From IMG/VR virus record IMGVR_UViG_3300045988_053041, positions 1 to 37,933 of that record: a stretch of DNA of 37,933 bases. One strand, 5' to 3'. Shown here one piece after another: positions 2,599-26,717 of this stretch. Source of the DNA: a virus. Position 1 is the first letter of the stretch. Each line of letters begins with the position of its first letter. The notes under the pieces were generated by a model that did not search any database, was not told where the DNA came from, and saw nothing but the letters and a program-made list of their open reading frames with translations. A program made the position numbers and the translations under genes.

Positions 2599-3769
2599 CT
2601 CCTCCTTGTGTAAGCTTTTTCTGGTCTGCGATCATGTCGCGCGGGATGTAGTTTTCCAAAATGACGAGCTCGTTGAGCCCTTCCTTCGGACTGAGGCCGA
2701 CCCAGTCGCGCACCTCGTTGCCGGTCATAAGTCCGCGCACGTAGAGGTTGGATGCTACGTCCGCGAGCTCCTTTGTGCTGTAGCTGTAGAGCCTGCGCGT
2801 CGACATCGTAAAATAGAGGTCGGTCGCATAGAGGAGCTTGCGCGTCAATTCCTGGCAAATGATGTTTGCGATTGTCGTGGCGGTCGTCTTGATCATGTGG
2901 TTGTGCTCGCTGTCCGAGTACGTCCCCACGCCCAGCATGAAAGGGGTCACGCCGACGAGCGCGGCCACGGCCTTTTTGTCGAGTTCCACGCCGTCCTTGA
3001 TGGCCAAGTCCGAGAGACTCAGCGGCTTGACCTGCTGCACGTCCATGAGGTCGGCCGGGACGATCCACGGCTCGCCCGCGCTCGAGCCCGTGATGTAGTC
3101 GTCGATCAGACGGCGGCGGCCTGCCGGGTCGGAAAATTCATCGGCCAGCGCGTCGACCTTGACAATGACGCTGGGCTTCCATTTGTCCGACATAAAGCCC
3201 TTCTTCGTCGCCTGCTCCTGCCGGAGCGAGTTGACCACGTCAAGCAGGCTCATCCGGAGCCCGAGCCCCTGCCACGGGTGGTCGGGGTCGACCCAGCGCC
3301 GGAACTGGAGGACGGTCTCGGGGTCGTACTGATGGCCGCGCCAGCTGATGTAGACTGTCTGGCCTTCGTCCGGGCTCATCGCCTGCGCGCCCGGCATGGG
3401 GATAAGGTCGCGAAGCAGCCCGTCCCGCGTGACCGGAAGGATGAAGGCCGTACCGCTGGCGCTTGTGAGCATTGCCCAGACGATGGCAGAAATCAAATCC
3501 TTGCGCGTGCCGAAGTTCCACGGCGAGATGTCCATAAACCGGGAAAGCGCGTTCCGCACGCGCACATCGCCGTCCGGCGTATTCTGCATGAGCTGAATGG
3601 TCGCGTTCGACACGATGTCGGCAAGGCCGCCGACCGCGGCCAACACGTCCGGACTGTCAGCGAGCCTGCAATAGCCCGGCACGCCAAGCGTGTCCTGATC
3701 GACCGCGCCGATCACAAATTTTCGCAGCGCGTCGTCCTGCGCGGATCTGCGCTGCACCTTTACTTTCAA
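2576..3769 (-). CDS. Portal protein (HK97 family)
   Basis: 397-aa ORF with a TTG start at 3769, 7 nt after GGAGGTG. It has a portal-like sequence and sits upstream of the protease. It ends in TAG. Confidence 0.88.
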   Translation of the reverse strand: MKVKVQRRSAQDDALRKFVIGAVDQDTLGVPGYCRLADSPDVLAAVGGLADIVSNATIQLMQNTPDGDVRVRNALSRFMDISPWNFGTRKDLISAIVWAMLTSASGTAFILPVTRDGLLRDLIPMPGAQAMSPDEGQTVYISWRGHQYDPETVLQFRRWVDPDHPWQGLGLRMSLLDVVNSLRQEQATKKGFMSDKWKPSVIVKVDALADEFSDPAGRRRLIDDYITGSSAGEPWIVPADLMDVQQVKPLSLSDLAIKDGVELDKKAVAALVGVTPFMLGVGTYSDSEHNHMIKTTATTIANIICQELTRKLLYATDLYFTMSTRRLYSYSTKELADVASNLYVRGLMTGNEVRDWVGLSPKEGLNELVILENYIPRDMIADQKKLTQGGGGDGGTE

Positions 3770-4414
3770 GTGGCATCACCTCCAAACAGCGACAGCTGCG
3801 CTGTGTATCGTTCAAAACGGTCTTCTTCCGCGGCAAAATAGTCTGCGTCCAGCTCGCACCCCACGAAATCAAGCCCCGCGTCATATGCCGCAATCCGACT
3901 TGAGCCGCTACCAAGGTGCGTATCAAGGATTCTGTCGCCCGGCTTTGCGTATCTGGCAAAAATCCAAGCATAGAGGGCGACAGGTTTCTGCGTTGGGTGG
4001 ATCGTCCATTCGCCGTTGCGCGCACCTCCGGCCGCACCGTTCCACGGGATGTCGGCAATCAAAGTTTTTCGGTCAAAGGATGTCCAGCACATTTCCGCGC
4101 TGGCAAAAGTCAAGCATTCCGGGACATGTTTGTCCCATATCACCCATGACCGCGTCAGCGGGAGCTGGAAGTAATTACCCCCCCCAGATGCATTGATTCT
4201 TGCTTACGCGGAAGAGTTCCTCAAAGTATGCTGGGGGCGGGACAGCCGCATCCCACGTTTTCTTTTGCCGCCGTGGGTTCTTTGCGTTAGCCCGTCGTCC
4301 GGCGTTGCAGTTGATGTTAATCCCGTAAGGTGGGTCGACAACGGCGAGGTCAAATGCCTTGTCAGAGAGCGTGCGCATGTACTCCATGCAGTCCATGTTG
4401 TATGCGACGTTCAC
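3766..4414 (-). pseudogene. Beta-class (DPPY ... TQKP ... DxxxGSGS) DNA N6-adenine/N4-cytosine methyltransferase split by a frameshift in a G8 tract
   Basis: Track ORFs 4175..4414 (…VVDPPYGI…NQCIWGG*) and 3766..4143 (…IWDKHV…HPTQKPVALY…DTHLGSGSS…) are the two halves. Removing one G from the run gives the continuous IWGGNYFQLPLTRSWVIWDKH. Confidence 0.85.
4178..4185. repeat. C8/G8 homopolymer at the methyltransferase frameshift point
   Basis: gtaattaCCCCCCCCagatg. The premature TAA (4175-4177) follows immediately on the minus strand. Confidence 0.95.
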
Positions 4415-6534
4415 GCCTTTGCCTCCTCCCGTGTTTCATACCAGCCTGCGCCCTTGGCGCTGGCGGTCAGGTCCTCCAGATATGCGCACGCGGCAAAGAC
4501 CGAACAGTCAAAAACATCGATGCGCAGGTTTGGAGCTATTTTTTCGTACATCACCATATCGTCGGCCTTTTCAATGCCGGCAACGTTTTGCACGCAGTAC
4601 TCATAGGGCTCTGCGTGCAGGTAATAGAGCGTGCCCTGCTTCGCGCTCTTTTCCAGGTACCGGAAGCCCTCGGACTTGAGCGTAAAGCGCTGAATCTGCG
4701 CCTTGATGGGGAAGCGCTCTTTCTGCATCTCCACAAAATACTCGCGGCAGAACTTCGGGTCGTGCCCGACGCGGCGGATTTTGAAGCCCTCGGCGCGGCG
4801 TTTTTTGAACCAGCGCACAACGTCGGAGTGGTTTGTCACCTTGTCGTTCGTCATGTCGAGCCAGCCGTCTTCCATCCAGCCAAAGAGCGGTATCTGGTCT
4901 TGCGTCGCTTTGACCACGGCGGCCGGCCGCGGGAACCAGCAGTGCGGGATGATGATGTCCACGCCCTTGTAGTGCCCAAACAGGCAGCAGGCCGTGAGGT
5001 CGTGCATCTTGGAAAGATCCGCGCCGCCGTACCAGCGGATGGGGAGCTTCGCGAGCTCCTGGAGCGTCCAGTTGTACTTCTCGTCCGACCGCCGGAACTC
5101 CTGGATGTCAAACCAGGCTTTGACGGCGTTCGTCGTGACGTTGAGGCTCTTGTTGAGATATTCCGGCCGGAGCATCGGGTTCTCGGCCGCGATGGCCGCG
5201 TCGTTGATCATGTCCTGCGGCCGGATGGAGTAGCCCCAGCCGGGGCTTGCGGCCTTGAGGACCGCCGGGTCATGGAGATCCACATCGCCGTTTTCCATCG
5301 TCGGCGCGGAGCACAAAAAGCAAAAGATCGTGTCGGCGTAGTCACCTGTGACCGTTCCGCGCAGAATTTTCCGGCAGAGTTCCAGATGCCCAAGCAAGAA
5401 GCCGCGCGCGTTGGGGCCGTTGGATGAAATGATAATGACAAGCTTATTTGTGTACGCCTTTGTCGCGTCCTTGAGGATCTGGTACTGCTGCGGGCTCTTA
5501 TAGGTGTGCGCTTCGTCGGCGATGACGATGTTGCAGTTAAAAGAGTCCTGCTTGTCGGGGTTGGCTGCCAGGGCGTTGATGGAGATCATGCCGTCGCCGA
5601 CATCGCCGGAGATCGACCGCTCCATGTTGTTGTCGATGATCCGCAGGCCCGTCTCCGGCTCATCCTTGACGGTCACGCCCAAGCGCGTGCAGTTGTACTT
5701 CAAAAAGTCAAAGCCCTCGAGTGCCTGCTTTAGCGCGCCGCCGACCTCGTACACCTTCGAGCCGGACGCTCGCTCATAAAGTGCCAGGGCAAAGGCCAGC
5801 GCGGCCGCAAACGTCGTCTTGACGTTTTTTCGCGGGATGAAGTCCACAGCTTCCTTGAAGCGCCGGATCTTCGTGCCGGGAAGGTAGAACCCCATGATGT
5901 TGTAGACAATGAACTTGTGGTACGGCAGGAGCAGGAACGGTGTGCCGCGCAGGGGCGTCGCGTCCAGGAACTCGCCCTGCTGGTGGCAGATCATCGTCTC
6001 GATGATGGCGATGATCTCGTTCGCGGGCTCCGTCCGGAATTCCCACTTGCCGGTGTCCAAGTCTGACACGTACCGTTTGCAGGCAAGCACCGCGTCCTCG
6101 CAGAGGCCGTTTTCTCCGGAGAGCGTCGCTTCGACAAAGCTGTCGACCTCGCGCTGGTACTGCGCGGCGTGCTCTTCGGCGTGGCTCTTGGACTCGGAGA
6201 GCAGCTGCTCAAGTTTGCTCGCGCCGCCCATCGGGACGCTCTTGGCGCGCGCCTTGTTAAGCCCCGTCGGCGTGAGGCCGAGCTGGTTGCGCAGGCCCTG
6301 CACCGTCGCGCGAAGATCCTCGACCGCTGTCCAGTACGGGCTCTTGGCTGTGTACTCCGCGCCGGTCTTGTTGACCATCGTACAGATGCGCTGCCCGCCC
6401 TGCTTCTTCCACTCTTTCTCGGCGCGGGAGAGCTCGCGCTCCGTCTTGGCCAGCTGCTTGATCGTCGGCTCGAATATTGCGTTGTAGGTGCCGACAAGCT
6501 GCATGTCCTGCCGGATCATGTCCTCTCGCGCCAT
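4411..6534 (-). CDS. terL: Terminase: small-subunit-like (P27/Terminase_4-like) N-terminal ~140 aa fused in frame to a large subunit (Terminase_1-like)
   Basis: Track ORF 4411..6627. The likely start is ATG 6534 (MAREDMIRQD...). The N-terminus ...NKTGAEYTAKSPYWTAVEDL...QLGLTPTGLNKARAK resembles small terminases. The remaining ~565 aa is TerL-like, and no stop separates the two parts. Confidence 0.85.
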   Translation of the reverse strand: MAREDMIRQDMQLVGTYNAIFEPTIKQLAKTERELSRAEKEWKKQGGQRICTMVNKTGAEYTAKSPYWTAVEDLRATVQGLRNQLGLTPTGLNKARAKSVPMGGASKLEQLLSESKSHAEEHAAQYQREVDSFVEATLSGENGLCEDAVLACKRYVSDLDTGKWEFRTEPANEIIAIIETMICHQQGEFLDATPLRGTPFLLLPYHKFIVYNIMGFYLPGTKIRRFKEAVDFIPRKNVKTTFAAALAFALALYERASGSKVYEVGGALKQALEGFDFLKYNCTRLGVTVKDEPETGLRIIDNNMERSISGDVGDGMISINALAANPDKQDSFNCNIVIADEAHTYKSPQQYQILKDATKAYTNKLVIIISSNGPNARGFLLGHLELCRKILRGTVTGDYADTIFCFLCSAPTMENGDVDLHDPAVLKAASPGWGYSIRPQDMINDAAIAAENPMLRPEYLNKSLNVTTNAVKAWFDIQEFRRSDEKYNWTLQELAKLPIRWYGGADLSKMHDLTACCLFGHYKGVDIIIPHCWFPRPAAVVKATQDQIPLFGWMEDGWLDMTNDKVTNHSDVVRWFKKRRAEGFKIRRVGHDPKFCREYFVEMQKERFPIKAQIQRFTLKSEGFRYLEKSAKQGTLYYLHAEPYEYCVQNVAGIEKADDMVMYEKIAPNLRIDVFDCSVFAACAYLEDLTASAKGAGWYETREEAKA
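6053..6069 (+). repeat. 17-bp element copy 2 (GTGTCCAAGTCTGACAC), in the terminase gene
   Basis: Read directly. The gene strand gives VSDLDT. Confidence 0.95.
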
Positions 6535-6827
6535 GCTTAGATTTCCTTTCTCTGAGACTCTGCCAGACGCAGCGCGCGAACGCCGCGTCCAGTCAAAAAA
6601 GGAGGATGATGAGATGACTCCGGGCACCGGCGGTGGTTCCCAATGCCGCCGAGCTGAACTGCGCCCGGCAGAGCCTCAGATGGTTTGCGTCTTTGCGCGC
6701 CCGCGTCGTTTGCGCCCGCGCCGCGCGATTCGAGATTTTCGCGCGTGTGCGCGCCTGGCGGTCTCGTCTGAACCCCCTCCCGCGGTTTTCCCGCCGTCGG
6801 AAAGAGGGCCCCACTCCGGTGCTCCGA
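6535..6827. other. Non-coding gap between HNH and terminase; candidate cos / terminase-recognition region
   Basis: ~290 bp with no credible ORF; the only translations are Arg/Ala/Pro-rich. It contains short direct repeats such as TTTGCGCGCCCGCG / TTTGCGCCCGCGCC. The HNH-cos-terminase layout is typical of HK97-like cos phages. Confidence 0.45.
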
Positions 6828-12759: not shown

Positions 12760-13090
12760 CAGCTACCTCCTCGCATTCTTCCTGCCGGACGATCGTCCGG
12801 TGCTTTTCATCGAGCGTCACAATGTAAGTCGCGCGGATGCCGTCGCAGCATTGCTGCTTTTGCGCCTTGTAGACCTTCCCGGGCTTGAGCTGGAATTCCG
12901 GGAAGACCGGCAGCGGCTTTGCCACGCGGATGCATACCGGGACGGCCTCCTTCTTGCGGTACTGCGCCGGGATGTAATTTACATTCTTCGCCCGCCGGTA
13001 GCACTCCCGGCAGCAGTAGACCTGATCGGTCCGGTACGTCGTGAAGAGGTTGCCGCAGCCACGGCATTGCCGGAACAGCTGCCTGCTCAT
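12752..13090 (-). CDS. Zinc-ribbon protein
   Basis: MSRQLFRQCRGCGNLF...YCCRECYRRA.... ATGA overlap with the parB stop. Confidence 0.65.
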   Translation of the reverse strand: MSRQLFRQCRGCGNLFTTYRTDQVYCCRECYRRAKNVNYIPAQYRKKEAVPVCIRVAKPLPVFPEFQLKPGKVYKAQKQQCCDGIRATYIVTLDEKHRTIVRQEECEEVADE

Positions 13091-14598
13091 ATCGAGCCCT
13101 CCTCTTCCGGCGGCAAATGCAGCCAGCGCAGGATATTCGGGCCGTTGTCCGTCAAAAGTTCTGCGCTATATAGCTCCAGCTCCCCGCAGTGCGCGGTATC
13201 AACGTCATAGATCCGCATGCCCTCGGTTTCAAGCAGCAACAGGACCGGCCCGTCCGGGAAATCGCGGTCTGTGCGCCAGGCCATCCGAAAAGCGCCTTCC
13301 GGCAGCGCCGCCGTGTCAGACTTGGACACCGGCTGAAGCTCGTCCGTCAGCCCCAGCAGATAGTCTGCCGAGCAGTGTAGCTCTGCACAAAGTGTCGGGA
13401 TGGCGCGCGAACTTGGAAGTAAAAACTCGTTGTTCCAAAGGCTCCTTGCGCCAAATTCGCCTTCTGCAAAATTCCGGATATCTGCGGCGGTTTTCATGCC
13501 GACGGTGTCGTTGATTATAAGGATCGTGCCGTCCGCCAGACCTGCCGCATCAATGGCTCTCACAATTCGTTGCGCATATTGCTGGGCTGCCGCATGGAAG
13601 ACACGCTGTTTATTCTCCTTTTCGGTTTCCTCTTTCTGCTTTTCGGCGGCGTTTTTGTCCGTGCGGTACTGCTTGGCCTTGGAGCACATCTGATCGCAGA
13701 CGTCATAGCAGCCACGCGCTTTCGCGCCATACTTGCAGTCCATGCAGCACATTTCGCCCTTGCACTGCGGCGTCCACGAGCCGCACGTGGCGTCATGCCG
13801 AAGCGTTGCGTCGTCTCTGGAATTCGGGCACCACTTACCATCCGGGCAGCGGAAGCGATTGCTCGGGTGCCAGGTCGCGCCCTTCTCGGCGAGTTCCCGC
13901 ACCTGCACAATTCCGGCAGATGTGGGAAATTCTTTCGTCCGGGCAAATGCATCGTATAGCCGCTGTTGCAAGGTAAAATCACACCGGGCAAGTTCCAAAG
14001 CCGTCGCATCGGGAAGCTTCCCAGCCGCCCACTGTGCCTTAAAATCGCTGGTGAGGTTCTCCTCGATCATGTGCAGGTTCGCAAGCTTCGTCTTGCTCAC
14101 ATTGCACGCCTCGGCCACATGGTCGCGCATCCGGCCGGGGAACTCCACGCCTTGCTCCTTAAGGTCATAAAGCAGACGCTCCACGCGCTGCGCCGCCTGG
14201 CTGATCTCCGCGCTCGTGAGCACTCTGGCCGTGGAGTTTGCCATGATGAGCTCCAGTTCTTCCATGGCCGCGCTTTTGGGGCTCCGGACGAAAACCGGCA
14301 CTTTGCGAAGATCCTCGCGCCCTTCTGCGACCAAAGCCCGAACCGCAGCCGTGCGCCGGTGGCCGGAAATAAGGCGGTACTTGCCGTCCTCCGTGCGCGT
14401 GACCGTCGGCGGGTCCATAATGCCGGAGAGCGCAATGGAGTTTTTGAGCTCTTCGAGTTTGTCCTCGTCAACGGCGTAAAAGTTCGCGTCGTTGCTGACT
14501 AAATCGTCAATGTCGACCTGCGTGAGCTCGCGTCCGGTGTCAGACTTGGACACCGCCTGCACCTGCTTAGCAAAAATGCTTGAAACGTCAAATGCCAT
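13087..14598 (-). CDS. parB: Atypical ParB/Spo0J-family protein: ParB N-domain, HTH, Cys-rich insert, XRE-like helix and DUF551-like C-terminus
   Basis: ...YRLISGHRRTAAVRAL... is the ParB GxxRxxA box. ATG 14598 overlaps the parA TGA (TGATG). The gene carries two copies of the 17-bp element, each encoding VSKSDT. Confidence 0.8.
   Translation of the reverse strand: MAFDVSSIFAKQVQAVSKSDTGRELTQVDIDDLVSNDANFYAVDEDKLEELKNSIALSGIMDPPTVTRTEDGKYRLISGHRRTAAVRALVAEGREDLRKVPVFVRSPKSAAMEELELIMANSTARVLTSAEISQAAQRVERLLYDLKEQGVEFPGRMRDHVAEACNVSKTKLANLHMIEENLTSDFKAQWAAGKLPDATALELARCDFTLQQRLYDAFARTKEFPTSAGIVQVRELAEKGATWHPSNRFRCPDGKWCPNSRDDATLRHDATCGSWTPQCKGEMCCMDCKYGAKARGCYDVCDQMCSKAKQYRTDKNAAEKQKEETEKENKQRVFHAAAQQYAQRIVRAIDAAGLADGTILIINDTVGMKTAADIRNFAEGEFGARSLWNNEFLLPSSRAIPTLCAELHCSADYLLGLTDELQPVSKSDTAALPEGAFRMAWRTDRDFPDGPVLLLLETEGMRIYDVDTAHCGELELYSAELLTDNGPNILRWLHLPPEEEGSI
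13313..13329 (-). repeat. 17-bp element copy 4 (GTGTCAGACTTGGACAC, reverse complement of the main form), in the parB 3' third
   Basis: Read directly. The gene strand gives VSKSDT. Confidence 0.95.
14537..14553 (-). repeat. 17-bp element copy 5 (GTGTCAGACTTGGACAC), in parB codons ~16-21
   Basis: Read directly. The gene strand gives VSKSDT. Confidence 0.95.
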
Positions 14599-15395
14599 CA
14601 CCAAAGCCCCCCCCTCAGAATCTCGTCCATGGTCACGGGCGGCTGGATGTACTCCTGCACGAATGCCCGGTAATCATATCCGGCTGCCGAGTACGGCGAG
14701 TAGACCGTGATCGGCTTGCGCTCGAAGGTCATTTCGTCAATTTTGTCGGTGCGGCGGATATGCTGCTCGAAGACCGGCAGGATGCCGCACTCCCGGAGGC
14801 TGCCCTCCGCCTCAAGTACGACCGGCGTATTGCGCCACATGGTGATAAGCGCCCCGGCGATCTTGAGGCTCGGGTTGATCTTGTGCATGTTGTCGATCTG
14901 GCGCGAGACATTGGCCAAACCGCGCAGGCTGAACGCGTCGAGCTTGATGGGGATAATGACCTCGTCGGAGGCCAGAAGCGCCGCGGCGCTGGCGGCGTTG
15001 AATGCCGGCGGGCAGTCGAAAATAACGTAGTCATACGCATCGTCCTCGCGGATGGCGTTGCAGAAGCCTTTGAGGCAGCTGCCGTTCACGCGATCTCCGA
15101 TGGACGATAGATCTAAGTCCATCAGCGCATCGGACGCCGGGAGCATGTCCACGCCGTAGACCGTCTCAGAGATATTGTCGGCGTAATATGACTCGCATGT
15201 TCCAAGCATTACGTCTGCCACGCCGTAGAGCCCCGGCTCGGTGAGCCCGTAGAACTCCGTCGCGTTGCACTGGCTGTCGCAGTCGGCGAGCAGCACGCGC
15301 TTTTTGTGATCAGCGGCCAGAATATAGGCCATATTCACGGCGGTCACGGTCTTCCCGACGCCGCCTTTGAGATTCAAAATCGAAATTGCCTTCAT
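14598..15395 (-). CDS. parA: ParA/Soj-type partition ATPase
   Basis: MKAISILNLKGGVGKTVTAVN... shows the deviant Walker A motif. ATG 15395 lies 8 nt after AAGGAG. This is the inner part of track ORF 14598..15527. Confidence 0.88.
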   Translation of the reverse strand: MKAISILNLKGGVGKTVTAVNMAYILAADHKKRVLLADCDSQCNATEFYGLTEPGLYGVADVMLGTCESYYADNISETVYGVDMLPASDALMDLDLSSIGDRVNGSCLKGFCNAIREDDAYDYVIFDCPPAFNAASAAALLASDEVIIPIKLDAFSLRGLANVSRQIDNMHKINPSLKIAGALITMWRNTPVVLEAEGSLRECGILPVFEQHIRRTDKIDEMTFERKPITVYSPYSAAGYDYRAFVQEYIQPPVTMDEILRGGLW

Positions 15396-15408
15396 GGTGT
15401 TTTCTCCT

Positions 15409-16731
15409 TCAGTCCGGCAGCTTGAACTGCTCGGGCACATCGTCGTTACATGGCTTCCAGCGCTTGTCCGGCTCCGGGCGCGGCGCCTGGGAAGCTGATT
15501 TTTTGAATGTCTGCGTCTGGCCGTCAAAGGCCAGCATCAGCGCGATATTTGCCTCGCCCTCTTTGTTCTTTGCGATGTTGAGGATGCGGCGGCTCCGGCT
15601 GTTGTCCGGCTCTTCGCGATAGAGCAGCATGACCACGTCCGCGTCCTGCTCGATCTGGCCGGAGGAGCGGAGCGAGGCCAGCGTCGGGGGCGGGATCTTG
15701 CCGCCCTTGGTCTTCTCGGGGCGCGAGAGCTGCGAGAGCGCGATGACGGGCGTGCCGGTCTGCCTGCCGAACTGCTGCAAGTCGCTCGAAATTTTCGAGA
15801 CGACCTGAAACTGGTCGGCTGCGCCGCGGCCTGTAATATCGCTCTTGATCTTTTGCAGGTAGTCGATGAAGATCACGTCGTAGCGCTTGGACAGGCTGTG
15901 CGCCCGGATGTCCTGGACGGTCATGCCGCTGGCCTCGACGAGCTCCAGCTTTAGCCCACCCAGCCGCTCGGAGAGCACTGCGACGGTTTCCCAGTCGGTC
16001 GCGTTCATGGCGTTGAGTTTCAGCTTCGGCAGGCCAATTTGTGCGGTCATGGCGATGATGCGGTCGAAGAGCTTGTCGCAGTCGGTCTCGTAGCTGTAAA
16101 AGCCGACGCGCATCGTCTTGGCCATCCGCACGGCGAGCGTCAGAGCGAGGCTCGTCTTGCCGTCCGACGGGTAGCCGCCGAGGACGACCATATCGCCCCG
16201 GGAGGCATAGACGTTTTCGTTGATATCCTCCATGCCAAAGTCCAGATAGACGGGCTTTGCGTCCGGGTCGTGCCGCTGATAAAACTGCGTCAGTGCGGCG
16301 GACATGTCCACCACGCGCAGCCCCGGCCGCTCGACCAGCTGGGCGTTTGCCTCATTGACCAGCCCGCGCAGATCGTCCTCGTCGTCCGTGTCCTGCATCC
16401 GCTGGGCAATACCTTGCAGACGGCTGACTCTGGCCTGCTGCTTTAAAAGCTGCATGTAGCTCTTGACGTTGGCCGCCGTCGGCGTGACCTGGATCAGCTC
16501 CATGAGAAGCTTGTCATACTTGCCGCCGAGCCGCGCGTTGATCGTCACCGCGTCGCAGGGCTCGCCGCTCGAAAACTGCGCCCGGAAGGCGAGGAACACT
16601 TGCCGGTAAGCGCCGGTCGTGAAGTCATCCGGGACGATCTCCTGAAGCACAAGGCCGACGGTTTTCTCGTCAATGAGCATCGCGCCGAGGACGGCCTGCT
16701 GGGCTTCCAACAGCTTTTTTTCGTCCGTCAC
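15409..16731 (-). CDS. dnaB: Replicative DNA helicase (DnaB family)
   Basis: 440 aa with a DnaB N-domain (…QQAVLGAMLIDE…) and a RecA-like core (…VLGGYPSDGKTSLAL…). GTG start overlaps the upstream TGA. Confidence 0.9.
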   Translation of the reverse strand: MTDEKKLLEAQQAVLGAMLIDEKTVGLVLQEIVPDDFTTGAYRQVFLAFRAQFSSGEPCDAVTINARLGGKYDKLLMELIQVTPTAANVKSYMQLLKQQARVSRLQGIAQRMQDTDDEDDLRGLVNEANAQLVERPGLRVVDMSAALTQFYQRHDPDAKPVYLDFGMEDINENVYASRGDMVVLGGYPSDGKTSLALTLAVRMAKTMRVGFYSYETDCDKLFDRIIAMTAQIGLPKLKLNAMNATDWETVAVLSERLGGLKLELVEASGMTVQDIRAHSLSKRYDVIFIDYLQKIKSDITGRGAADQFQVVSKISSDLQQFGRQTGTPVIALSQLSRPEKTKGGKIPPPTLASLRSSGQIEQDADVVMLLYREEPDNSRSRRILNIAKNKEGEANIALMLAFDGQTQTFKKSASQAPRPEPDKRWKPCNDDVPEQFKLPD

Positions 16732-17728: not shown

Positions 17729-18163
17729 TTATCCTCCTTTGTTGTAAGCGACGGCCAGCGCGCTTTGGACGATCTCGTCGAGCTTGGAGACGATCCGGTC
17801 GAACTCCGGCCGCTCCGTGTCGTCGATCACGCCGTCTTTTGCAATCGTAATCAGGCGACGGTCTTCGCGCGCGTCGGCAAAGTCATAAATTTGGTCAATG
17901 AGCCGCAAGACGGCCTCCGGCAGATCGCACTCCCGCACATCGGGAATGAGCCGCTGGGCGATCTCGCTCGTCTGGCGCAGGTGCTGGTAGCACAGATACT
18001 GCGCGTCGTAAATTTCCGCCATCCGCACAACCGTCTCCGACGGCGGGATGCGTACGCCGCTCTCATAATCGGCGAGGCTCCGCACCGAGCACGGAATCGC
18101 GTCGGCTGCGCGCTCCTGCGTGATGCCCTTGGCAATGCGGGCGGCTCCGTAGATATTTGGCAT
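17729..18163 (-). CDS. XRE-family HTH protein with a ~80-aa C-terminal domain
   Basis: ATG 18163 after GGAGG (MPNIYGAARIAKGITQERAADAIPCSVRSLADYESG...). Inner part of track ORF 17729..18376. Confidence 0.75.
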   Translation of the reverse strand: MPNIYGAARIAKGITQERAADAIPCSVRSLADYESGVRIPPSETVVRMAEIYDAQYLCYQHLRQTSEIAQRLIPDVRECDLPEAVLRLIDQIYDFADAREDRRLITIAKDGVIDDTERPEFDRIVSKLDEIVQSALAVAYNKGG

Positions 18164-18246
18164 GTGTCCTCCAATCCGGCAGCAAGTCTGCAAGCCGCCT
18201 TTGCCCTTCGGCAGGTATTTCGCGTGGGAATGCTGGGTAAACTTTG

Positions 18247-18459
18247 CTATGATTTTCGCGTCAGCCAGCGAGCCAGCTCCGTCAGCGGCACGGCGTACTT
18301 GTTGCCGACCTTCCGCGCGGGGAACTCCCGGTCGGCCAAAAGCGTCCGCCGGTCGAGCCCGAGCGCCGCCTGGCACTCCGTGACCGTGATCGCCGCCCGC
18401 GCCGGAAACATGTCCGTCAAAAGCTCCAGCTGCGGCCTGTAGCCTTCCGTCTCACGCAT
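18247..18459 (-). CDS. Excisionase-like / MerR-type small HTH protein
   Basis: 70 aa, ...ITVTECQAALGLDRRTLLADREFPARKVGNKYAVPLTELARWL.... AGGAGG-7nt-ATG. Its position in the early lysogeny-switch operon fits. Confidence 0.6.
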   Translation of the reverse strand: MRETEGYRPQLELLTDMFPARAAITVTECQAALGLDRRTLLADREFPARKVGNKYAVPLTELARWLTRKS

Positions 18460-21286: not shown

Positions 21287-22309
21287 ATGGCGATCCCCAA
21301 GTACTACGTGCGCCCGGATGGGCTGCATGAGACGATCATCAAAATAAACGGCAAGCGCAAGGCCTTCCGGGGGAAGACTGACCGCGAGGTCTGGGAGAAG
21401 GTCAAAAGCTATCGCGCCGACGTGGCCGCTGGGAAGACCGAGACATTTGAGAACGTAGCGCACGCCTGGTGGAACGAGATCGAGCCGACGCTCGCCGCAA
21501 ACACACACCGGGGCTATAACCCGGCCTATGAGCGCGCCGTGGCCGAGTTCGGGGAAATGGACGTGGCCTCGATCACAGCCAGAGATATTGAGCGCTATAT
21601 CAACCAGTTTGCGAAGACCTACGCCAAAAAGACCGTCGTCACACAGCGGCAGATCATCCGCCAGATCTTAAACAAAGCCCAGCGCGAGGGTTATATCGCC
21701 TACAATCCGGCGGAGGCCGTCCTGCTCCCCAAAAACCTGCCGCAGAAAAAGCGCCGCGCGCCAAGCCCTGATCAAATAAAAAAAATAAAAGCCGGCCTTT
21801 CGGACGACTTTGGGCTCTTTGCCTTTTTGATCTACTATACTGGGTGTCGCCGCGGCGAGGTGGAGGGGCTCAAGTACGAGGACATCGACCGCAAGGCAAA
21901 GCGCATCCGTATCCAGCGCAGCGTCTACAATGTCAGCACCAAGCCGGAGATCAAGGGGCCAAAGACCGAGGCCGGTATCCGCTCCGTGCCGCTGCTGGAC
22001 GCGTTGGCCGCTGCCCTGCCAGATAAAAAACACGGTTTTATATTTTCTGACGACGGCGGCAAAACCCCGACGCCGGACTGGAGGATCACCCGGCAGTACG
22101 AGGACTACCAGAAGCGCACCGGCGTCACCGTCACGCCGCATGAGATCCGACACGGCTACGCGACGGCCCTGCACGAGGCGGGCGTGGATTATAAAACTGC
22201 CCAGCAGCTGCTTGGCCACGCCCAGCTCTCGACCACGATGGACATTTACACGGATATTTTGGACAATACCATCGACGATGCAGCCGCAAAAATGGGCAAG
22301 TCCTTTTGA
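21287..22309 (+). CDS. int: Tyrosine site-specific integrase
   Basis: 340 aa with a SAM-like N-domain and a catalytic region ...TGCRRGEV...HEIRHGYAT...LLGHAQLSTTMDIYTD.... GGGAGG SD. Confidence 0.92.
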   Translation: MAIPKYYVRPDGLHETIIKINGKRKAFRGKTDREVWEKVKSYRADVAAGKTETFENVAHAWWNEIEPTLAANTHRGYNPAYERAVAEFGEMDVASITARDIERYINQFAKTYAKKTVVTQRQIIRQILNKAQREGYIAYNPAEAVLLPKNLPQKKRRAPSPDQIKKIKAGLSDDFGLFAFLIYYTGCRRGEVEGLKYEDIDRKAKRIRIQRSVYNVSTKPEIKGPKTEAGIRSVPLLDALAAALPDKKHGFIFSDDGGKTPTPDWRITRQYEDYQKRTGVTVTPHEIRHGYATALHEAGVDYKTAQQLLGHAQLSTTMDIYTDILDNTIDDAAAKMGKSF

Positions 22310-22561: not shown

Positions 22562-22581
22562 CTGTGTTTATACTGTGTTCA
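22562..22581 (+). repeat. Arm-type repeat pair CTGTGTTTA TACTGTGTTCA
   Basis: Direct repeat of 22318-22338, on the other side of the tRNA-like core. Confidence 0.7.
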
Positions 22582-23076
22582 ATCTCTTTCGAGCCTTGGC
22601 TCTACGATACCGTGATAATACCCGGCGATTTTCGTCTCGGGGCCACCGCCGTCCTTGTCGAAGAGAAACGCCTTCGCTAGGTCTGCGTAGTATTCCGGCC
22701 GGTCGAGGCCGTATTTCTGCGCGACGTCGAAGTTGTCCGAGTACTCCATATTGAGTGCCGCGAACCAGATCCACGGGTCGACGTGCACGCCGATGCTGTT
22801 GGCCACAGCCGTGGTCTGCTCGAGCGTCCAGTGCGCGCCCATCGAGCCGTCGTCGTTTTCCATGTGCTCCGTCCAGCGCTTGGCATCGGCCTCGGTAAAG
22901 CCAGCTGTCTTCGTGCCCTCATGGGCAGGCTCTTCGCCGCCCAGCTTTTTGAGCGCGCAGATCGCGTCGGCGTATGCGCAGATTTCCTCCGCCCTCCCGA
23001 GCAACACAGGGCGCTCCATCAGGGCGGCGATTTCGTCGCGCAGATGTTGCATGTATTTGCTCTTGTCCATACTCAA
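22579..23076 (-). CDS. Hypothetical protein (att-proximal cargo)
   Basis: 165-aa ORF. It is the last gene before attP on the minus strand. No family recognised. Confidence 0.65.
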   Translation of the reverse strand: MSMDKSKYMQHLRDEIAALMERPVLLGRAEEICAYADAICALKKLGGEEPAHEGTKTAGFTEADAKRWTEHMENDDGSMGAHWTLEQTTAVANSIGVHVDPWIWFAALNMEYSDNFDVAQKYGLDRPEYYADLAKAFLFDKDGGGPETKIAGYYHGIVEPRLERD

Positions 23077-23411
23077 GCCTCCTGTATGTATTTGTACAGA
23101 CTATCAAGATCATCCGCAGCAAAAGTCAACTTTCCAATGAATGGGATTCTTATCGGGAGTTTTCGCCCGTCGAGCCGCGGTCTTGCCTTATTATAGAGTC
23201 TGTCAATGTCGATATTCCCTTGTTCGTCCATAACACGCATTGCTTTTACCCACGGATTATCTCTCAACACAAGCAGTTGCTCCTTGCTGCCGTCTGCCAG
23301 TAGCGACAACCCAACGCCTGCCACAAAGGACCGCACCTCGTCCATATGCGGAGATGCTACTGTGTCAAAAAAACGCACAGCGCCGCGCATTGCCTGATCA
23401 ATCGTAACCAT
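23073..23411 (-). CDS. Hypothetical protein
   Basis: 112-aa ORF with AGGAGG SD and an ATGA-type overlap with the next gene. Confidence 0.65.
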   Translation of the reverse strand: MVTIDQAMRGAVRFFDTVASPHMDEVRSFVAGVGLSLLADGSKEQLLVLRDNPWVKAMRVMDEQGNIDIDRLYNKARPRLDGRKLPIRIPFIGKLTFAADDLDSLYKYIQEA

Positions 23412-23432
23412 GTCATTTCCTCCTTAAAGGGC

Positions 23433-23460
23433 GGGGCGGCTATTGCCGCCCCTTTTGCTT
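23433..23460. terminator. Intercistronic GC hairpin; a terminator-like T-tract exists only on the plus strand
   Basis: GGGGCGGC-tatt-GCCGCCCC followed by TTTTGCTT on the plus strand. Confidence 0.45.
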
Positions 23461-24088
23461 AGTTCTTGCAGCAGCCGCACTTCGGGAGCGGATTGTAGAG
23501 CGTCTGCGCAGTGGTCGCGGTTCCGGTGGTGACGTCTGCAACCTGCTTCGGATAAAAGGTGGCGTTGGCATAAGTCACGATGGCGTTGTCGCCGCAGCAG
23601 CGCCGCTCTGCCTCCATCTCGATCTCGCGGTGCAGCTCGGACTTGACCGACGCGATGTCCTGGCGCGCCAGCACAAAGCTGTCTTCGGTGCGCTGGTTGT
23701 GGACCGCCTGATCGCACAGCGTCTTGCGCACGTCCTTGAGCTGACCGTCGATGTAGGCGTACACCTCCAGCATCTTCTGGTCGTTGTAGGTGTTCGCCTT
23801 GAGCAGGGCAATCTCAGAGTCCTTCGCCGCCAGCTGCTGCTCGCGGTCGAGCTCGTAGCGCGTCACAGTGACGTTTTCGCTGCAAACGGGATGTTCCTGA
23901 CGGCCGGCCAGAACGCCTGCCAGCGCTGTCATAACCGGCACAGCCGCCTCTGCGGCAGCGTCCTTGCGGGTATTTCCGCCAAGGCCGCCGAGCAGGTTAT
24001 TGAGCCCTCCGTTTGCCAAACCGAGCGCAGCGCCGCCGATACCAAAGCCCAGCGCCGTTCCGGCAAGGCCTTTGCTTGCATATTCCAT
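23459..24088 (-). CDS. Hypothetical protein: Gly-rich N-terminus, coiled coil, C-terminal CGCC motif
   Basis: ATG 24088 (MEYASKGLAGTALGFGIGGAALGLANGG...), ending ...NPLPKCGCCKN. Inner part of track ORF 23459..24151. Confidence 0.65.
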   Translation of the reverse strand: MEYASKGLAGTALGFGIGGAALGLANGGLNNLLGGLGGNTRKDAAAEAAVPVMTALAGVLAGRQEHPVCSENVTVTRYELDREQQLAAKDSEIALLKANTYNDQKMLEVYAYIDGQLKDVRKTLCDQAVHNQRTEDSFVLARQDIASVKSELHREIEMEAERRCCGDNAIVTYANATFYPKQVADVTTGTATTAQTLYNPLPKCGCCKN

Positions 24089-24215
24089 GTGTTGATCTCC
24101 TTTGCAAAAAGTAAGCTGGCCAGCTCCTAGCATCAGTGTACCGGAGATCAAATTTTCGGGGGTGGCGTGAGCGTGATTTTATGTGCGAAATAATTTGATT
24201 TTTTAAAAATAATGC

Positions 24216-24244
24216 TTGACATATACGGGCAAACCGTATATAAT
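24216..24244 (+). promoter_or_regulatory. Perfect consensus sigma-A/sigma-70 promoter TTGACA-17 nt-TATAAT with A/T-rich upstream element
   Basis: TTGACA at 24216-24221 and TATAAT at 24239-24244. The upstream sequence is aaataatttgattttttaaaaataatg. Confidence 0.85.
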
Positions 24245-24301
24245 AAAACCATAGAGATAAACAAAAAAACAAACCCCAACACGGGGCAGGAGGAAATAAA
24301 A

Positions 24302-24571
24302 ATGAAAGCTACTATTTATGCAAACTACGGAATGCTCGCAGCTGAAAAGCGCTGCATCTACACCACGGCCGAAACCGACGCCACCGTCTCCGAGCCGCTT
24401 GACGTCATCATCCCCGAGAAATTCGCCCCGGCGAAAAACGCTGCTGACGAGATCGTCGTCACGCTGAACGGTTACAATTATCGCTTGCAGGATGTCCTGT
24501 GCGGCGACGAACAGCCCTGCATCATGGTCCCGGGATACACCACCAGATACGAGCGGCTCGCTCGTGCCTAA
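24302..24571 (+). CDS. Moron gene A, hypothetical 89-aa protein
   Basis: AGGAGG-8nt-ATG (MKATIYANYGMLAAEKRCIYTT...). Inner part of track ORF 24212..24571. Confidence 0.7.
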   Translation: MKATIYANYGMLAAEKRCIYTTAETDATVSEPLDVIIPEKFAPAKNAADEIVVTLNGYNYRLQDVLCGDEQPCIMVPGYTTRYERLARA

Positions 24572-24591
24572 GCCAAAGCGAGGGAATCCAA

Positions 24592-25071
24592 ATGCCAACT
24601 GAGGCACAAAAACGCGCCCGGAACAAGTGGGACGCGGAGAACCGCACCGTGATCGGGTGCAAGATGCGGCGAGAAGACGCGGAAGCGTTTAAGGCCGCCG
24701 CGCAGGAAGACGGAACAAACCCCAACGAGCTCTTGCGCGGCTGGATCGGGGACTACATGAGCAGGGAGGAATCAGACATGACGAATGACCAAATTCAGGC
24801 GCTGGCGACGATCTTTGCGATTTGCCGCAAGGCCACGAAAACACAGATCCAGAGCGACATTGACAACGCGCAACGTTACCCCATCAAATGGGCGACCATT
24901 ATGGTGCGCAAACTCCACGCGATGGGCAAGGCAACGGACGATATCGACCGCGCAATCGCCGAGCAGTACGGCAAAATCGACATCGATACGTTTACGGCCA
25001 ACTTTGACAAATGCCTCACGCTCGAGCAGCAAGGCGTTTGGAGCCTTGCATTTTATAAGGCAATGCAATAA
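24592..25071 (+). CDS. Moron gene B: ribbon-helix-helix-like N-domain plus unknown C-domain
   Basis: MPTEAQKRARNKWDAENRTVIGCKMRREDAEAFKAAAQEDGTNPNELLRGWIGDYM has a strand-helix-helix pattern. An in-frame internal GGGAGGA-7nt-ATG lies at 24778. Confidence 0.7.
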   Translation: MPTEAQKRARNKWDAENRTVIGCKMRREDAEAFKAAAQEDGTNPNELLRGWIGDYMSREESDMTNDQIQALATIFAICRKATKTQIQSDIDNAQRYPIKWATIMVRKLHAMGKATDDIDRAIAEQYGKIDIDTFTANFDKCLTLEQQGVWSLAFYKAMQ

Positions 25072-25115
25072 AGCACGCTTTGGGCGCGCTGGGACACTTT
25101 AATAGGAGGGACATT

Positions 25116-25487
25116 ATGACGGCAGATGAGTACATAGCCAAACTGGAGAGCCGCTGGCCAAAAAACATCCCGCTGGGGATGCTGCGCGACGCAGTGATCG
25201 TCGTCTCCAGCCAGAAGTTGCAGGAGATTAAAGCCGAGCTGCATGGGACGGATCAATCGCATAACCTTTACGCTGGGCGCCTTTGTGAGTACAAAATAGG
25301 GACTGTCGACATGGCAAGCTTTGAGGCGCTCGTCCCGAGCTTTGACGCAATCCATTTCGTGGAGGGCGGGGACTACCTTGTCCATCAAGGCAAACTATCG
25401 CAAGTCACACGTGTCAACCGTAGCTCAACCGGGCGTGAGGCCTTTGTTGATATCACGCCAGTCGCTGACATTACATACCTTGGATAA
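25116..25487 (+). CDS. Moron gene C, hypothetical 123-aa protein
   Basis: AGGAGG-6nt-ATG (MTADEYIAKLESRWPKNIPLGML...). Inner part of track ORF 25080..25487. Confidence 0.7.
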   Translation: MTADEYIAKLESRWPKNIPLGMLRDAVIVVSSQKLQEIKAELHGTDQSHNLYAGRLCEYKIGTVDMASFEALVPSFDAIHFVEGGDYLVHQGKLSQVTRVNRSSTGREAFVDITPVADITYLG

Positions 25488-25492
25488 AAACA

Positions 25493-25524
25493 CCCGGTGT
25501 CCAACTTGGACACCGGGTATTTTA
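25493..25524. terminator. Bidirectional rho-independent terminator built from 17-bp element copy 7
   Basis: CCCGGTGTCCAA-C-TTGGACACCGGG. The plus strand continues TATTTTATAT and the minus strand TGTTTTTATCC. It lies between convergent genes. Confidence 0.8.
25497..25513. repeat. 17-bp element copy 7 (perfect palindrome GTGTCCAACTTGGACAC), core of the bidirectional terminator
   Basis: Read directly. Confidence 0.9.
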
Positions 25525-25770
25525 TATCATGTTGAGCCTTTGCGCTGTCTGCCGCGCCCTCGTATAAATCCCGGGCAGCCGCCTCGAAAGCGTGCTTCGC
25601 TCCATGCACAGCTCGACGGCCACGTCGATCTGGGGCGCTTTGCCCACGATGTAGCGGCGCACGATCTCGGCGTCCTGCCTGCTGTATCCGGCCTCGCGTA
25701 TGACGCGCTCCCACTCGCTTTGCAGCAAACCGGATAAGTCGTCTGGGATATGGACTCTTGCGCTTGCCAA
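25522..25770 (-). CDS. Small sigma-70 region-4-like HTH protein
   Basis: 82 aa, ...QDAEIVRRYIVGKAPQIDVAVELCMERSTLSRRL.... TTG start at 25770, 7 nt after AGGAGG. Confidence 0.6.
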   Translation of the reverse strand: MASARVHIPDDLSGLLQSEWERVIREAGYSRQDAEIVRRYIVGKAPQIDVAVELCMERSTLSRRLPGIYTRARQTAQRLNMI

Positions 25771-25806: not shown

Positions 25807-26508
25807 TTACTTGTGATTCAGCACGGCAATATTGCCCTTGTTGGATACCTCCAGATCAAGGGCGGCGGCGAGGTCGCGCACCTTGACGTAATTCGTGCCG
25901 TCCTTCAGGATGCGCTCCACGGAAACCTCTTTGCCGTCGACGATGATTTTGCTTTTTTCTACCACTTCGCGTTCCTCCTCTCCAAGTTTTCCGTCCTCGA
26001 GCACCATGACCGTGTGGCCGCTGGAAACCAGCACGTCGCCGCGCAGCAGCCTTGCGTCCGAAGTTAGGTACTCGCCGTGCAGGAGCTCAAAATCGCCGGT
26101 CTTCGGCCAATCGTTGAGCATACAGTAGGTCGTGCAGCTGTTGCCCTGCTTCCTGTAGAGCTCTTCTACGCCCTTGCACCCGGCGGCTACCGCGCAGAGC
26201 GTCTGGAGCCCCGAACAATCCGTCTCGACCGGTTTTGTGATCTTGCTCACGTCCCAGCCAACGACTCTCGCGGCTTCATACGCCGTGTTTCGGTCGGACA
26301 TGTCATAACCGATGTTCCGGTTTTTAATCGCCGCCTCGCACGTCTTGGCGGCTCTCTCGGCCTTTCTCGGGTCTTTGTAGCGCAGCAGGCCAAGCCAGTG
26401 GCCATTGTACCAGTACGAGATATTGAGCTCCTGCCCGGTCTGGTTGCCGGGCTTCTGGTCCCAGCCGCCGGTCTCGCCGAGGCTGGCCTGTCCGATTTTA
26501 ACGGCCAT
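25807..26508 (-). CDS. Endolysin: NlpC/P60- or CHAP-like cysteine peptidase with C-terminal Cu-amine-oxidase-N-like wall-binding domain
   Basis: ...VETDCSGLQTL... and ...SSGHTVMV... look like a Cys/His catalytic pair. The C-terminus reads ...VDGKEVSVERILKDGTNYVKVRDLAAALDLEV.... It follows the holin with a TGATG overlap. Confidence 0.75.
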   Translation of the reverse strand: MAVKIGQASLGETGGWDQKPGNQTGQELNISYWYNGHWLGLLRYKDPRKAERAAKTCEAAIKNRNIGYDMSDRNTAYEAARVVGWDVSKITKPVETDCSGLQTLCAVAAGCKGVEELYRKQGNSCTTYCMLNDWPKTGDFELLHGEYLTSDARLLRGDVLVSSGHTVMVLEDGKLGEEEREVVEKSKIIVDGKEVSVERILKDGTNYVKVRDLAAALDLEVSNKGNIAVLNHK

Positions 26509-26717
26509 CACTTGCCCTCCGTTGTGCCGTCCAGCACATCCTGCGTCTTCTGGGACTGGGTCCCGAAATAAAACGCGATGATCACGGCGTAGATCGTCAT
26601 AAAGTCCTGCGAGATCTTACCGGCTACAGACATGTACGCAAACACACCCGTCAGGACCAGTGTGACCAGAGATTTGACGCTGAGCAAATTGCCCAGCCGC
26701 TTTTTGATATTATCCAT
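26508..26717 (-). CDS. Holin (two-TM small membrane protein)
   Basis: 69 aa, ...SLVTLVLTGVFAYMSVAG...IYAVIIAFYFG.... It lies directly upstream of the endolysin. Confidence 0.75.
   Translation of the reverse strand: MDNIKKRLGNLLSVKSLVTLVLTGVFAYMSVAGKISQDFMTIYAVIIAFYFGTQSQKTQDVLDGTTEGK

Follow-up and report, generated by a model that had tools for sequence, protein, structure and literature searches.

A phage genome from the human gut, IMG/VR record IMGVR_UViG_3300045988_053041, carries a cassette of three small genes, here called A, B, and C, whose ingredients all have precedents among anti-CRISPR (Acr) systems, namely, Acr-associated (Aca) regulators of the ribbon-helix-helix (RHH) type, Acr-Aca fusions, and Cas-derived Acrs. 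The whole record, 37,933 nucleotides in length, was analyzed and is referred to below as the window. Precedents for Cas-derived Acrs are AcrIB3 and AcrIB4. The latter, from Listeria, is a homolog of the last 90 residues of Cas8b (Cas11b) and inhibits type I-B systems (Katz et al., bioRxiv 10.1101/2023.06.24.545427), and the mechanism proposed for it is the replacement of Cas11 in Cascade (10.1101/2025.06.06.658234). Fusions of a repressor with an inhibitor are exemplified by AcrIIA1, in which a helix-turn-helix (HTH) domain is joined to a Cas9-binding domain, and by AcrIF25, which carries an RHH domain where a homolog has an HTH domain. Among the Aca regulators, Aca14 is of the RHH type and goes with an inverted repeat that overlaps the −10 element; it was described from Pasteurella and further Proteobacteria, where the cargo comprises AcrIF23, AcrIF6, AcrVA3, and csx20 (NAR 2026, PMC13551039). 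In Pseudomonas, acrIC5 is linked to the gene of the HTH regulator Aca1 (Leon et al. 2021, PMC7913775). At other acr loci, repression by an Aca-type regulator is essential.

The cassette of the window is probably an autoregulated anti-CRISPR operon of the acr-aca type, in which gene B encodes an Aca-like repressor fused to a candidate mimic of a type I-C Cascade subunit. The broader statement, that the cassette is a counter-defense operon with an Aca-like RHH protein, is very likely to hold; the narrower one, that the C-terminal domain of B inhibits type I-C systems, has, judging from sequence, a somewhat better than even chance of being right.

A Cas11c-like domain in gene B

Gene B (24592-25071, plus strand) encodes a protein of 159 amino acids (aa), the best conserved part of which is the C-terminal domain (C-domain; residues 63 to 159, 24778-25068). 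The cassette and its relatives were compared across more than 100 related gut phage loci, including 48 IMG/VR loci, with a tblastn map of all neighbors. A profile of 20 diverse members of the C-domain family was searched against all PDB sequences, and nine of its 10 matches were type I-C Cas11 or the C-terminus of Cas8c (best E value, 0.004), two of them in end-to-end alignment with Cas11c. The C-terminal 70 positions of the Pfam family Cas_Csd1 were also matched, by five of the 20 members, with E values of 0.002 to 0.01. The C-termini of 12 annotated cas8c genes, taken from plasmids of seven phyla, were then aligned and compared with the C-domain using hhalign; the comparison gave a probability of 95.7% (P = 9.7e-9) over 90 aligned columns that covered the whole domain, and the controls, which were unrelated alignments and a reversed Cas11c alignment, scored at most 2.4%. 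In the reciprocal direction, a hidden Markov model (HMM) of the Cas8c C-termini was run against the 6449 open reading frames (ORFs) of all loci, and the top 62 were all C-domain ORFs. Structure prediction agreed: the AlphaFold 2 (AF2) model of B has a predicted local distance difference test (pLDDT) score of 88.8, rising above 90 in the C-domain, and the four best Foldseek matches of this model in the PDB were type I-C Cas11 chains (probability, 0.84 to 0.99), all later matches falling below 0.1. On the strength of these comparisons, the C-domain is very probably a true homolog of Cas11c. An earlier note on the window, made by a model from the letters alone, could assign neither A, nor C, nor the C-domain of B to a family, which still describes A and C and no longer applies to the C-domain.

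The homology with Cas11c and the C-terminus of Cas8c (Csd1; PDB 7KHA, 8G9S, and 9JHB) extends over the whole helical domain of approximately 95 residues and includes three colinear motifs, among them the C-terminal F-x-x-x-L-x-L-E/D-Q-Q-G-x-F/W-x-x-x-Y. The basic motif G-R-L-F of Cas11c, however, is replaced by A-x-I-F-A in the phage copy. The phage copy also differs in its setting: it lies outside cas8c and any type I-C cas operon, and neither cas genes nor a CRISPR array were noticed among the called genes or scanned proteins of the window and the related loci. By the Pfam rule it is no member of Cas_Csd1, the family matches remaining below threshold; it is a diverged orphan relative. An orphan viral homolog of the Cas8 C-terminus/Cas11 within an anti-defense locus is the pattern expected of a Cas subunit mimic.

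An exhaustive profile search recovered the C-domain in four forms, namely, alone (approximately 100 aa), behind an RHH domain, before an RHH domain, and before an XRE-type HTH domain, which is the pattern of Acr-Aca fusions. In all the loci seen, the C-domain is fused or adjacent to a DNA-binding domain. The distant fusions lie in small cassettes. In three of these, the promoter is close to consensus and its spacer holds an inverted repeat, and two of the distant C-domain cassettes converge with lysis or tail genes. When distant members were used singly as queries, scans of IMG/VR found almost nothing. In BFVD, members of the family are labeled either as uncharacterized or by their HTH domain only. 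Zinc-ribbon/AP2-type proteins of 213 to 234 aa flank distant C-domain genes in three loci (L059, L061, and L070). In a further locus (L066), the 93-aa first gene beside a distant C-domain-HTH protein resembles A by eye; the HMM of the A family does not detect it, and it was set aside.

The C-domain begins at a possible translation start of its own. An internal Shine-Dalgarno (SD) sequence, GGAGG (24765-24769), precedes an in-frame ATG at 24778 that corresponds to Met63 (24765-24780 in all, plus strand). The earlier note had pointed to this site, which turned out to be not only present but also conserved throughout the fused homologs examined: the arrangement A[G/A]GGAGG-8 nucleotides-ATG is kept in 56/56 fused copies, representing 11 variants, and the internal SD survives an Arg-to-Lys change (AGG to AAG) among them. 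The SD is likewise found in stand-alone C-domain genes. The C-domain is therefore likely translated independently from Met63. Cas11 is similarly made by internal translation within cas8b, and Cas11c by internal translation of cas8c, so that an internal start within a longer ORF, apparent in the case of the phage copy, is common to both.

AcrIB4 is among the closest known parallels. Both AcrIB4 and the C-domain are orphans that lie outside cas operons in an anti-defense locus, and the mechanism proposed here is the same. The C-domain differs from AcrIB4 in resembling Cas8c/Cas11c of type I-C rather than Cas8b of type I-B, in being fused to a putative RHH autorepressor, in having a conserved internal start, and in coming from gut Clostridia-like phages; AcrIB4 being derived from type I-B, the two would not be expected to be closely similar in sequence. 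No viral family derived from Cas11c, and no fusion of a Cas11c-like domain to a repressor with an internal start, was found in the literature and libraries searched.

Promoter, operator, and the ribbon-helix-helix domain

The cassette is bounded on the left by an A/T-rich stretch resembling an UP element (24190-24215), which lies upstream of the −35 hexamer and at which homology to the cassettes of other phage backbones begins. It is followed by a plus-strand promoter of the σ70 type, TTGACA-17-TATAAT (24216-24244), that matches the consensus at 12/12 positions with a 17-nucleotide spacer; approximately 0.005 such matches are expected in 76 kb of two-strand sequence, and the hexamers are identical in more than 60 related loci. 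Downstream, on the same strand, are gene A (24302-24571; 89 aa), preceded by GGAGG at 24289-24293, gene B, and gene C (25116-25487; 123 aa), preceded by AGGAGG. The right boundary is an intrinsic terminator (25492-25524) that consists of a 12-bp stem (25492-25518) flanked by an A-tract (left) and a T-tract (right). It is common to the cassette and a convergent gene for an 82-aa protein, and in three phage backbones the final gene of the cassette is followed by this hairpin or a compensatory variant of it. The terminator scan scored the plus strand only; that the hairpin works in both directions is plausible. The earlier note had described this promoter and its A/T-rich upstream stretch, the three plus-strand genes with their strong SDs and lengths, and a self-contained "moron," and the description was borne out: structurally, the cassette is a mobile transcription unit complete with promoter and terminator. 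A short operon that is made up of small genes and includes a DNA-binding regulator, as found here between one promoter and one terminator, is characteristic of acr-aca operons. Within the 5′ untranslated region of gene A, a terminator-like hairpin followed by a T-run can be seen on the minus strand (24273-24287). Read on the plus strand, it is a CCCC-N5-GGGG hairpin directly before the SD of A, which was dismissed, its stability not exceeding that of shuffled sequences (z = −1.1).

The promoter spacer is filled by a candidate operator, a perfect 8-bp inverted repeat ATATACGG-N5-CCGTATAT (24221-24241), which extends into both hexamers, taking in the final base of the −35 and the first three of the −10, and thus gives TTGAC[ATATACGG]GCAAA[CCGTATAT]AAT. 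The repeat occurs once in the window, where 0.01 sites are expected. A second variant, found in cassettes of a type represented by locus L001, has compensatory changes in both arms (ATATAGTG-N5-CACTATAT, in the context TTGAC[ATATAGTG]TTTAA[CACTATAT]AAT). The two repeats go with different versions of the RHH β-strand, or ribbon: the repeat of the window type is paired with ribbons of the xVIGCKM type (...RTVIGCKM, or MAVVSCKM or MSVISCKL) in 22/22 loci, and the L001 type is paired with TNVAARV ribbons (...MTN[V/I]AARV) in 29/29. Repeat and ribbon variants therefore co-segregate in 51/51 scorable loci, and the pairing tracks the cassette rather than the phage backbone. This co-segregation suggests that B is an autorepressor that would shut down its own very strong promoter through binding of the RHH domain to the spacer repeat. 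A strong promoter and an inverted-repeat operator that lies over the core elements and is matched to the regulator are likewise the arrangement seen, at the level of sequence, in acr-aca operons.

The RHH domain itself comprises approximately residues 1 to 59 of B (24592-24768, plus strand). It matches Pfam RHH_10 with an E value of 0.007, its homologs match PF10723, and the AF2 model contains the expected strands at residues 18 to 26 followed by two helices; the BFVD matches are ParG-, AmrZ-, and Mnt-like RHH proteins. An RHH-like N-domain with the flavor of an autoregulator, as the earlier note had it, is therefore supported by Pfam, AF2, and BFVD. In sister cassettes, homologs of this domain exist as stand-alone proteins of 60 to 64 aa, whose genes overlap the stop codon of the upstream gene, and these short proteins serve the same operator without a C-domain.

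The RHH part of the cassette resembles Aca14, as compared by fold and layout rather than by sequence: both are RHH regulators with a conserved repeat over the −10 element that accompany several Acr families. The cargo is different, consisting here of AcrIC5, a homolog of AcrVA2, the Cas11c-like domain, and genes without a family, and the repeat of the gut phages fills the spacer. With AcrIIA1 and AcrIF25, B shares the combination, in one polypeptide, of an autorepressor of the acr promoter with an inhibitor domain (both putative in the case of B), the occurrence of the inhibitor domain on its own, and the exchange of the DNA-binding domain between homologs. B is set apart from them by an effector domain that is homologous to a Cas subunit, by the attachment of the DNA-binding domain at either end, and by the conserved internal SD, which suggests that a single gene yields two products. 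As far as the searched literature and libraries show, the promoter-operator module has not been reported as a marker of anti-defense genes in gut phages.

Anti-CRISPR cargo of sister cassettes

A scan of IMG/VR for the exact promoter/operator string returned 38 loci. Besides cassettes of the A-B(-C) kind, the commonest layout was a 66-aa gene that overlaps the start of a 60-aa RHH gene; the 66-aa gene comes first in 17 examined loci with the same promoter, operator, and RHH. Its product belongs to the Pfam family AcrIC5 (PF22147), which it matches over the full profile with an E value of 2.2e-25 and 88.9 bits against a cutoff of 27. A gene of the AcrIC5 family is thus translationally coupled to a stand-alone RHH protein homologous to the N-domain of B. 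Experiments have validated AcrIC5 as an inhibitor of type I-C, with the system of the gut bacterium Eggerthella lenta among those inhibited (PMC7913775). A second Acr family is represented in two loci of the same promoter class (L011 and L012), where a homolog of A is followed by a 347-aa protein and by a stand-alone RHH protein homologous to the N-domain of B; the 347-aa protein is a homolog of AcrVA2 (phmmer against PDB 7ci1, E = 1.4e-7). The regulator family is in this way linked to validated Acr families, as is typical of Aca proteins. In locus L059, an AcrIC5 homolog has a stand-alone C-domain gene 1.7 kb downstream on the same strand. A scan with the type-2 operator yielded essentially no new cargo.

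The sister cassettes also resemble the acrIC5-aca operons that have been described, in that the gene of the AcrIC5 member immediately precedes that of the regulator (Leon et al. 2021, PMC7913775). The regulator linked to AcrIC5 is of the HTH type (Aca1) in Pseudomonas and of the RHH type in the gut phages, and the cassette of the window differs from both in lacking AcrIC5 and having A, the RHH-Cas11c fusion, and C instead.

Exchange of cassettes and cassette genes among gut phages

The earlier note had called for a comparison of the interval from the lysis genes to attR in related prophages as a check for cassette swapping, and swapping was indeed seen in the interval between lysis genes and integrase. 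The unit from promoter to terminator occurs in three phage backbones, at two positions, and in both orientations. In phages of the window type it converges with the lysis genes; in those of the L001 type, which are more numerous, it occupies the same place and is co-oriented with them, the inversion being directly visible in blastn; and in a third type, represented by L006, it lies elsewhere, adjoining the packaging genes. An orientation opposite to that of all surrounding genes, which the earlier note had emphasized, is correct for the window and not a conserved property of the cassette, most relatives being co-oriented with the lysis genes. No flanking inverted repeats that could explain the inversion were found; an invertible switch was considered and rejected, the difference in orientation reflecting insertion at the level of the cassette.

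The content of the cassettes varies as well. The first gene is either A or an unrelated gene for a 122-aa protein, C is optional, and where C is absent, the same terminator hairpin directly follows B, so that B, or its N-terminal half, is the sole constant. By locus, B occurs without A and C in 31 cases, A with B in 12, B with C in six, all three in 19, and the C-domain alone in 10; no L001-type cassette has A, and most of the cassettes with B lack C. Two additional genes, X1 (123 to 131 aa, beginning MFKILSAWGWATNPAYD...) and X2 (194 aa), are inserted between the first gene and B in a number of loci (L019, 2495-3450; L028, 5056-6011; L029, L031 to L033, and L038). X2 is a protein with several zinc ribbons of the CxxC kind (Pfam DZR_2); the stop codon of its gene overlaps the start of B. 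On the other cargo, PHROGs identified only modules of the zinc-ribbon/AP2 type, which are common to HNH endonuclease families.

Homologs of A, B, and C are confined to contigs of human-gut metagenomic phages; only 12 homologs of A and 27 of C were found, all in these phages. A homolog of A is the first gene of the AcrVA2-carrying cassette in L011. The AF2 model of C reached a pLDDT of 64, and its Foldseek matches were noise only. With their narrow distribution, small size, and position in the operon, A and C fit the role of exchangeable small cargo and are candidate anti-defense proteins. C travels also with the short RHH protein that lacks the Cas11c-like domain. In two cassettes downstream of a promoter match (L092 and L108), AcrIC5, RHH, a 177-aa protein without an assigned family, and C follow each other, and another (L116) contains AcrIC5, X1, RHH, and a 127-aa protein that is 29% identical to C.

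Proposed mode of action and competing explanations

The cassette may operate as follows. On entry of the phage, or from the prophage, the consensus promoter would give a strong burst of expression. As full-length B accumulates, its RHH domain would dimerize on the 8-bp repeat in the spacer and −10 element and shut the promoter down, the role of an Aca protein. The phage copy of Cas11c would probably be present in two forms, one within B and one translated alone from the Met63 start. Either by occupying the place of Cas11c or by binding the surface of Cas8c/Cas7 that Cas11c uses, it could poison the complex, and a Cascade poisoned in this manner would be unable to hold the R-loop or to license Cas3, as proposed for AcrIB4 in type I-B. 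That the C-domain founds an undescribed family of viral Cas11c mimics, which act by subunit poisoning of type I-C Cascade, are hard-wired to their own repressor, and come as two products (RHH-Cas11c, bound to DNA, and a Cas11c-like form that is free), is a tentative proposal that we put slightly short of even.

Several observations weigh against an anti-CRISPR operon of this kind. The window's own C-domain has no family match in Pfam, and the Cas_Csd1 matches of its relatives remain below the gathering cutoff of 27 bits. The identity between the C-domain and the sampled Cas8c C-termini is approximately 23% over 90 columns, a greater divergence than that of AcrIB4 from Cas8b (38%), and the Foldseek matches, for all their probabilities, have weak E values (0.05 to 0.17) and modest template modeling scores (0.4 to 0.5, target normalized). 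Few independent evolutionary events underlie the co-variation of operator and ribbon. The cassette of the window includes no gene of a validated Acr family, and neither A nor C has a match in Pfam, PHROGs, PADLOC, NCBIfam, or, by sequence profiles, the PDB. The clues to the host are the Firmicute-like structural genes and two contigs of metagenome-assembled genomes ("Clostridia bacterium" and "Collinsella sp.") from a genome scan, and a type I-C system in that host is presumed solely from the AcrIC5 cargo of the sister cassettes. Finally, a strong, autorepressed promoter is typical of toxin-antitoxin loci too.

The alternatives must accommodate the same evidence. B could be merely a transcription factor, with a helical C-domain that is descended from Cas11 or resembles it and serves oligomerization or co-repression, the cargo then acting in lysogenic conversion without a link to CRISPR. 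The RHH domain and the operator are the best-supported parts of the cassette, helical bundles give weak Foldseek scores, and the constant company of a DNA-binding domain in the loci seen fits such a role; yet the C-domain also has genes of its own, with their own SD, which is retained in the fusion, and the 60- to 64-aa RHH proteins work the same operator without it. Its attachment to unrelated DNA-binding folds, at either end, would be unexpected for a dedicated dimerization domain because RHH domains dimerize by themselves. In addition, the Cas11c homology comes from sequence profiles over the whole domain and so goes beyond the fold, and the cargo of the sister cassettes consists of anti-CRISPRs, one of them specific to type I-C. 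A plain transcription factor is therefore an unlikely explanation, though less easily dismissed than a toxin-antitoxin or defense module.

The earlier note had suspected a prophage-encoded defense, superinfection-exclusion, or toxin-antitoxin module, with B as the antitoxin of the RHH kind and either C or A as its toxin. An RHH N-domain and an apparently autorepressed strong promoter are indeed common to type II toxin-antitoxin loci, the site between the lysis genes and the integrase is the classic position for morons, and PADLOC matched AbiEii (PDLC02301) weakly to residues 68 to 143 of B (19.7 bits; E = 1.3e-4). This match was discarded: the fold is all-helical and no nucleotidyltransferase, and the AbiEii motif D-x-D (Asp89 and Asp91) shows no conservation across the C-domain family. 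Nor is there an obligate partner, B being accompanied by A, the 122-aa gene, X1, X2, C, or none of these, and the C-domain occurring also alone; A and C lack any match to a toxin or defense family in the libraries named above; and the same regulatory module carries AcrIC5 and the AcrVA2 homolog. The variable partners of B, the absence of a toxin match, the Acr genes of the sister cassettes, and the homology with Cas11c together argue for counter-defense and not defense, and the guess of the earlier note was abandoned as quite improbable. Still less probable, to the point of being barely credible, is a helper function, whereby the Cas11c-like domain would complement or redirect a Cascade of the host or one borne by the phage, or tether Cascade to DNA through the RHH domain. 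A true Cas11c homolog in a fusion that would link Cascade-binding and DNA-binding modules is what this explanation has in its favor, but the window and related loci revealed neither cas genes nor an array, the operator is present only once in the window, and the sister cargo is made up of CRISPR inhibitors.

If B is a Cascade subunit mimic joined to its own repressor, a two-product gene would copy the internal-translation trick of its target, cas8c/cas11c, and de-repression might be coupled to the titration of B by Cascade. Of the CRISPR subtypes in gut Firmicutes and Actinobacteria, type I-C is one of the most frequent, and most of its known inhibitors are from Pseudomonas and Moraxella. An inhibitor derived from Cas11c would be only the second instance of Cas11 mimicry, and for type I-C it would be the first; it would also exemplify the origin of anti-CRISPRs by capture of a cas gene fragment. 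The promoter/operator together with the RHH protein is a signature short enough to be searched for, which already links AcrIC5, the AcrVA2 homolog, and at least five small-protein families without an assigned function and so supplies anti-defense candidates from uncultured gut phages. If B is such a mimic, the module would be a guilt-by-association handle on anti-defense genes in gut Clostridia phages, among them A, C, X1, the gene for the zinc-ribbon protein X2, and the 122-aa gene. The matched variants of operator and ribbon would also constitute a natural specificity swap for studies of DNA recognition by RHH proteins.

Genomic surroundings of the cassette

The window is the whole, circularly permuted genome of a temperate phage of the human gut, approximately 38 kb in length and with a G+C content of approximately 58%. 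Its genes include those for terminase, portal, and capsid (a block at 305-6627), DnaB and a ParA/ParB pair (in an early region, 13087-16731), a repressor-like HTH_3 protein (17732-18376), and a tyrosine integrase (21287-22309, plus strand), so that the phage encodes both an integrase and a partition system. The integrase lies to the left of the cassette, beyond a minus-strand trio of genes (22579-24088) that forms the immediate left flank. One member of the trio encodes a protein of 209 aa that has an N-terminus rich in Gly, a coiled coil, and a C-terminus rich in Cys (CGCCKN); the other two encode a 112-aa protein and a DUF7841 protein of 165 aa. Conservation of the trio extends to three other loci (L011, L019, and L049); in the window it is stranded behind the inverted cassette, and no promoter-like site for it was scored in 24089-24215.

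On the right flank, all on the minus strand, are the 82-aa gene that converges with the cassette (25522-25770), the adjoining endolysin gene (25807-26511; ELLD domain, E = 1e-55), and the holin gene. By eye, the C-terminus of the 82-aa protein resembles an HTH of the σ70 region 4/LuxR kind, and its scored matches, in PHROGs and NCBIfam, are weak HTH ones only. The gene stands beside the cassette in all phages of the window and L001 types, at 44 to 100% identity. Two further proteins, from L001 and its kin, may be mentioned here. In L001, directly upstream of the holin gene, a 68-aa protein (4101-4307) has a precomputed Pfam match to Acb2_Tad1_hairpin, the fold of sponges that act against the cyclic-oligonucleotide-based antiphage signaling system (CBASS) and against Thoeris; the window has no counterpart. 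After the cassette, in L001 (6556-6939) and its relatives, comes a 127-aa protein without a Pfam match whose Cys...His arrangement (GDCTVRA ... SHVVCVEDG) is reminiscent of a papain-like peptidase.

In the structural block of the window, a minus-strand ORF of 738 aa (4411-6627) combines a Terminase_4 small-terminase domain (residues 41 to 125) with the ATPase and nuclease domains of the large terminase, which may represent either a fusion of the small and large subunits (TerS-TerL) or two genes joined by the far-upstream GTG start chosen in the ORF listing. The major capsid protein (305-2047, minus strand) carries a C-terminal S-layer SbsC-like domain (residues 499 to 577), possibly a decoration of the capsid.

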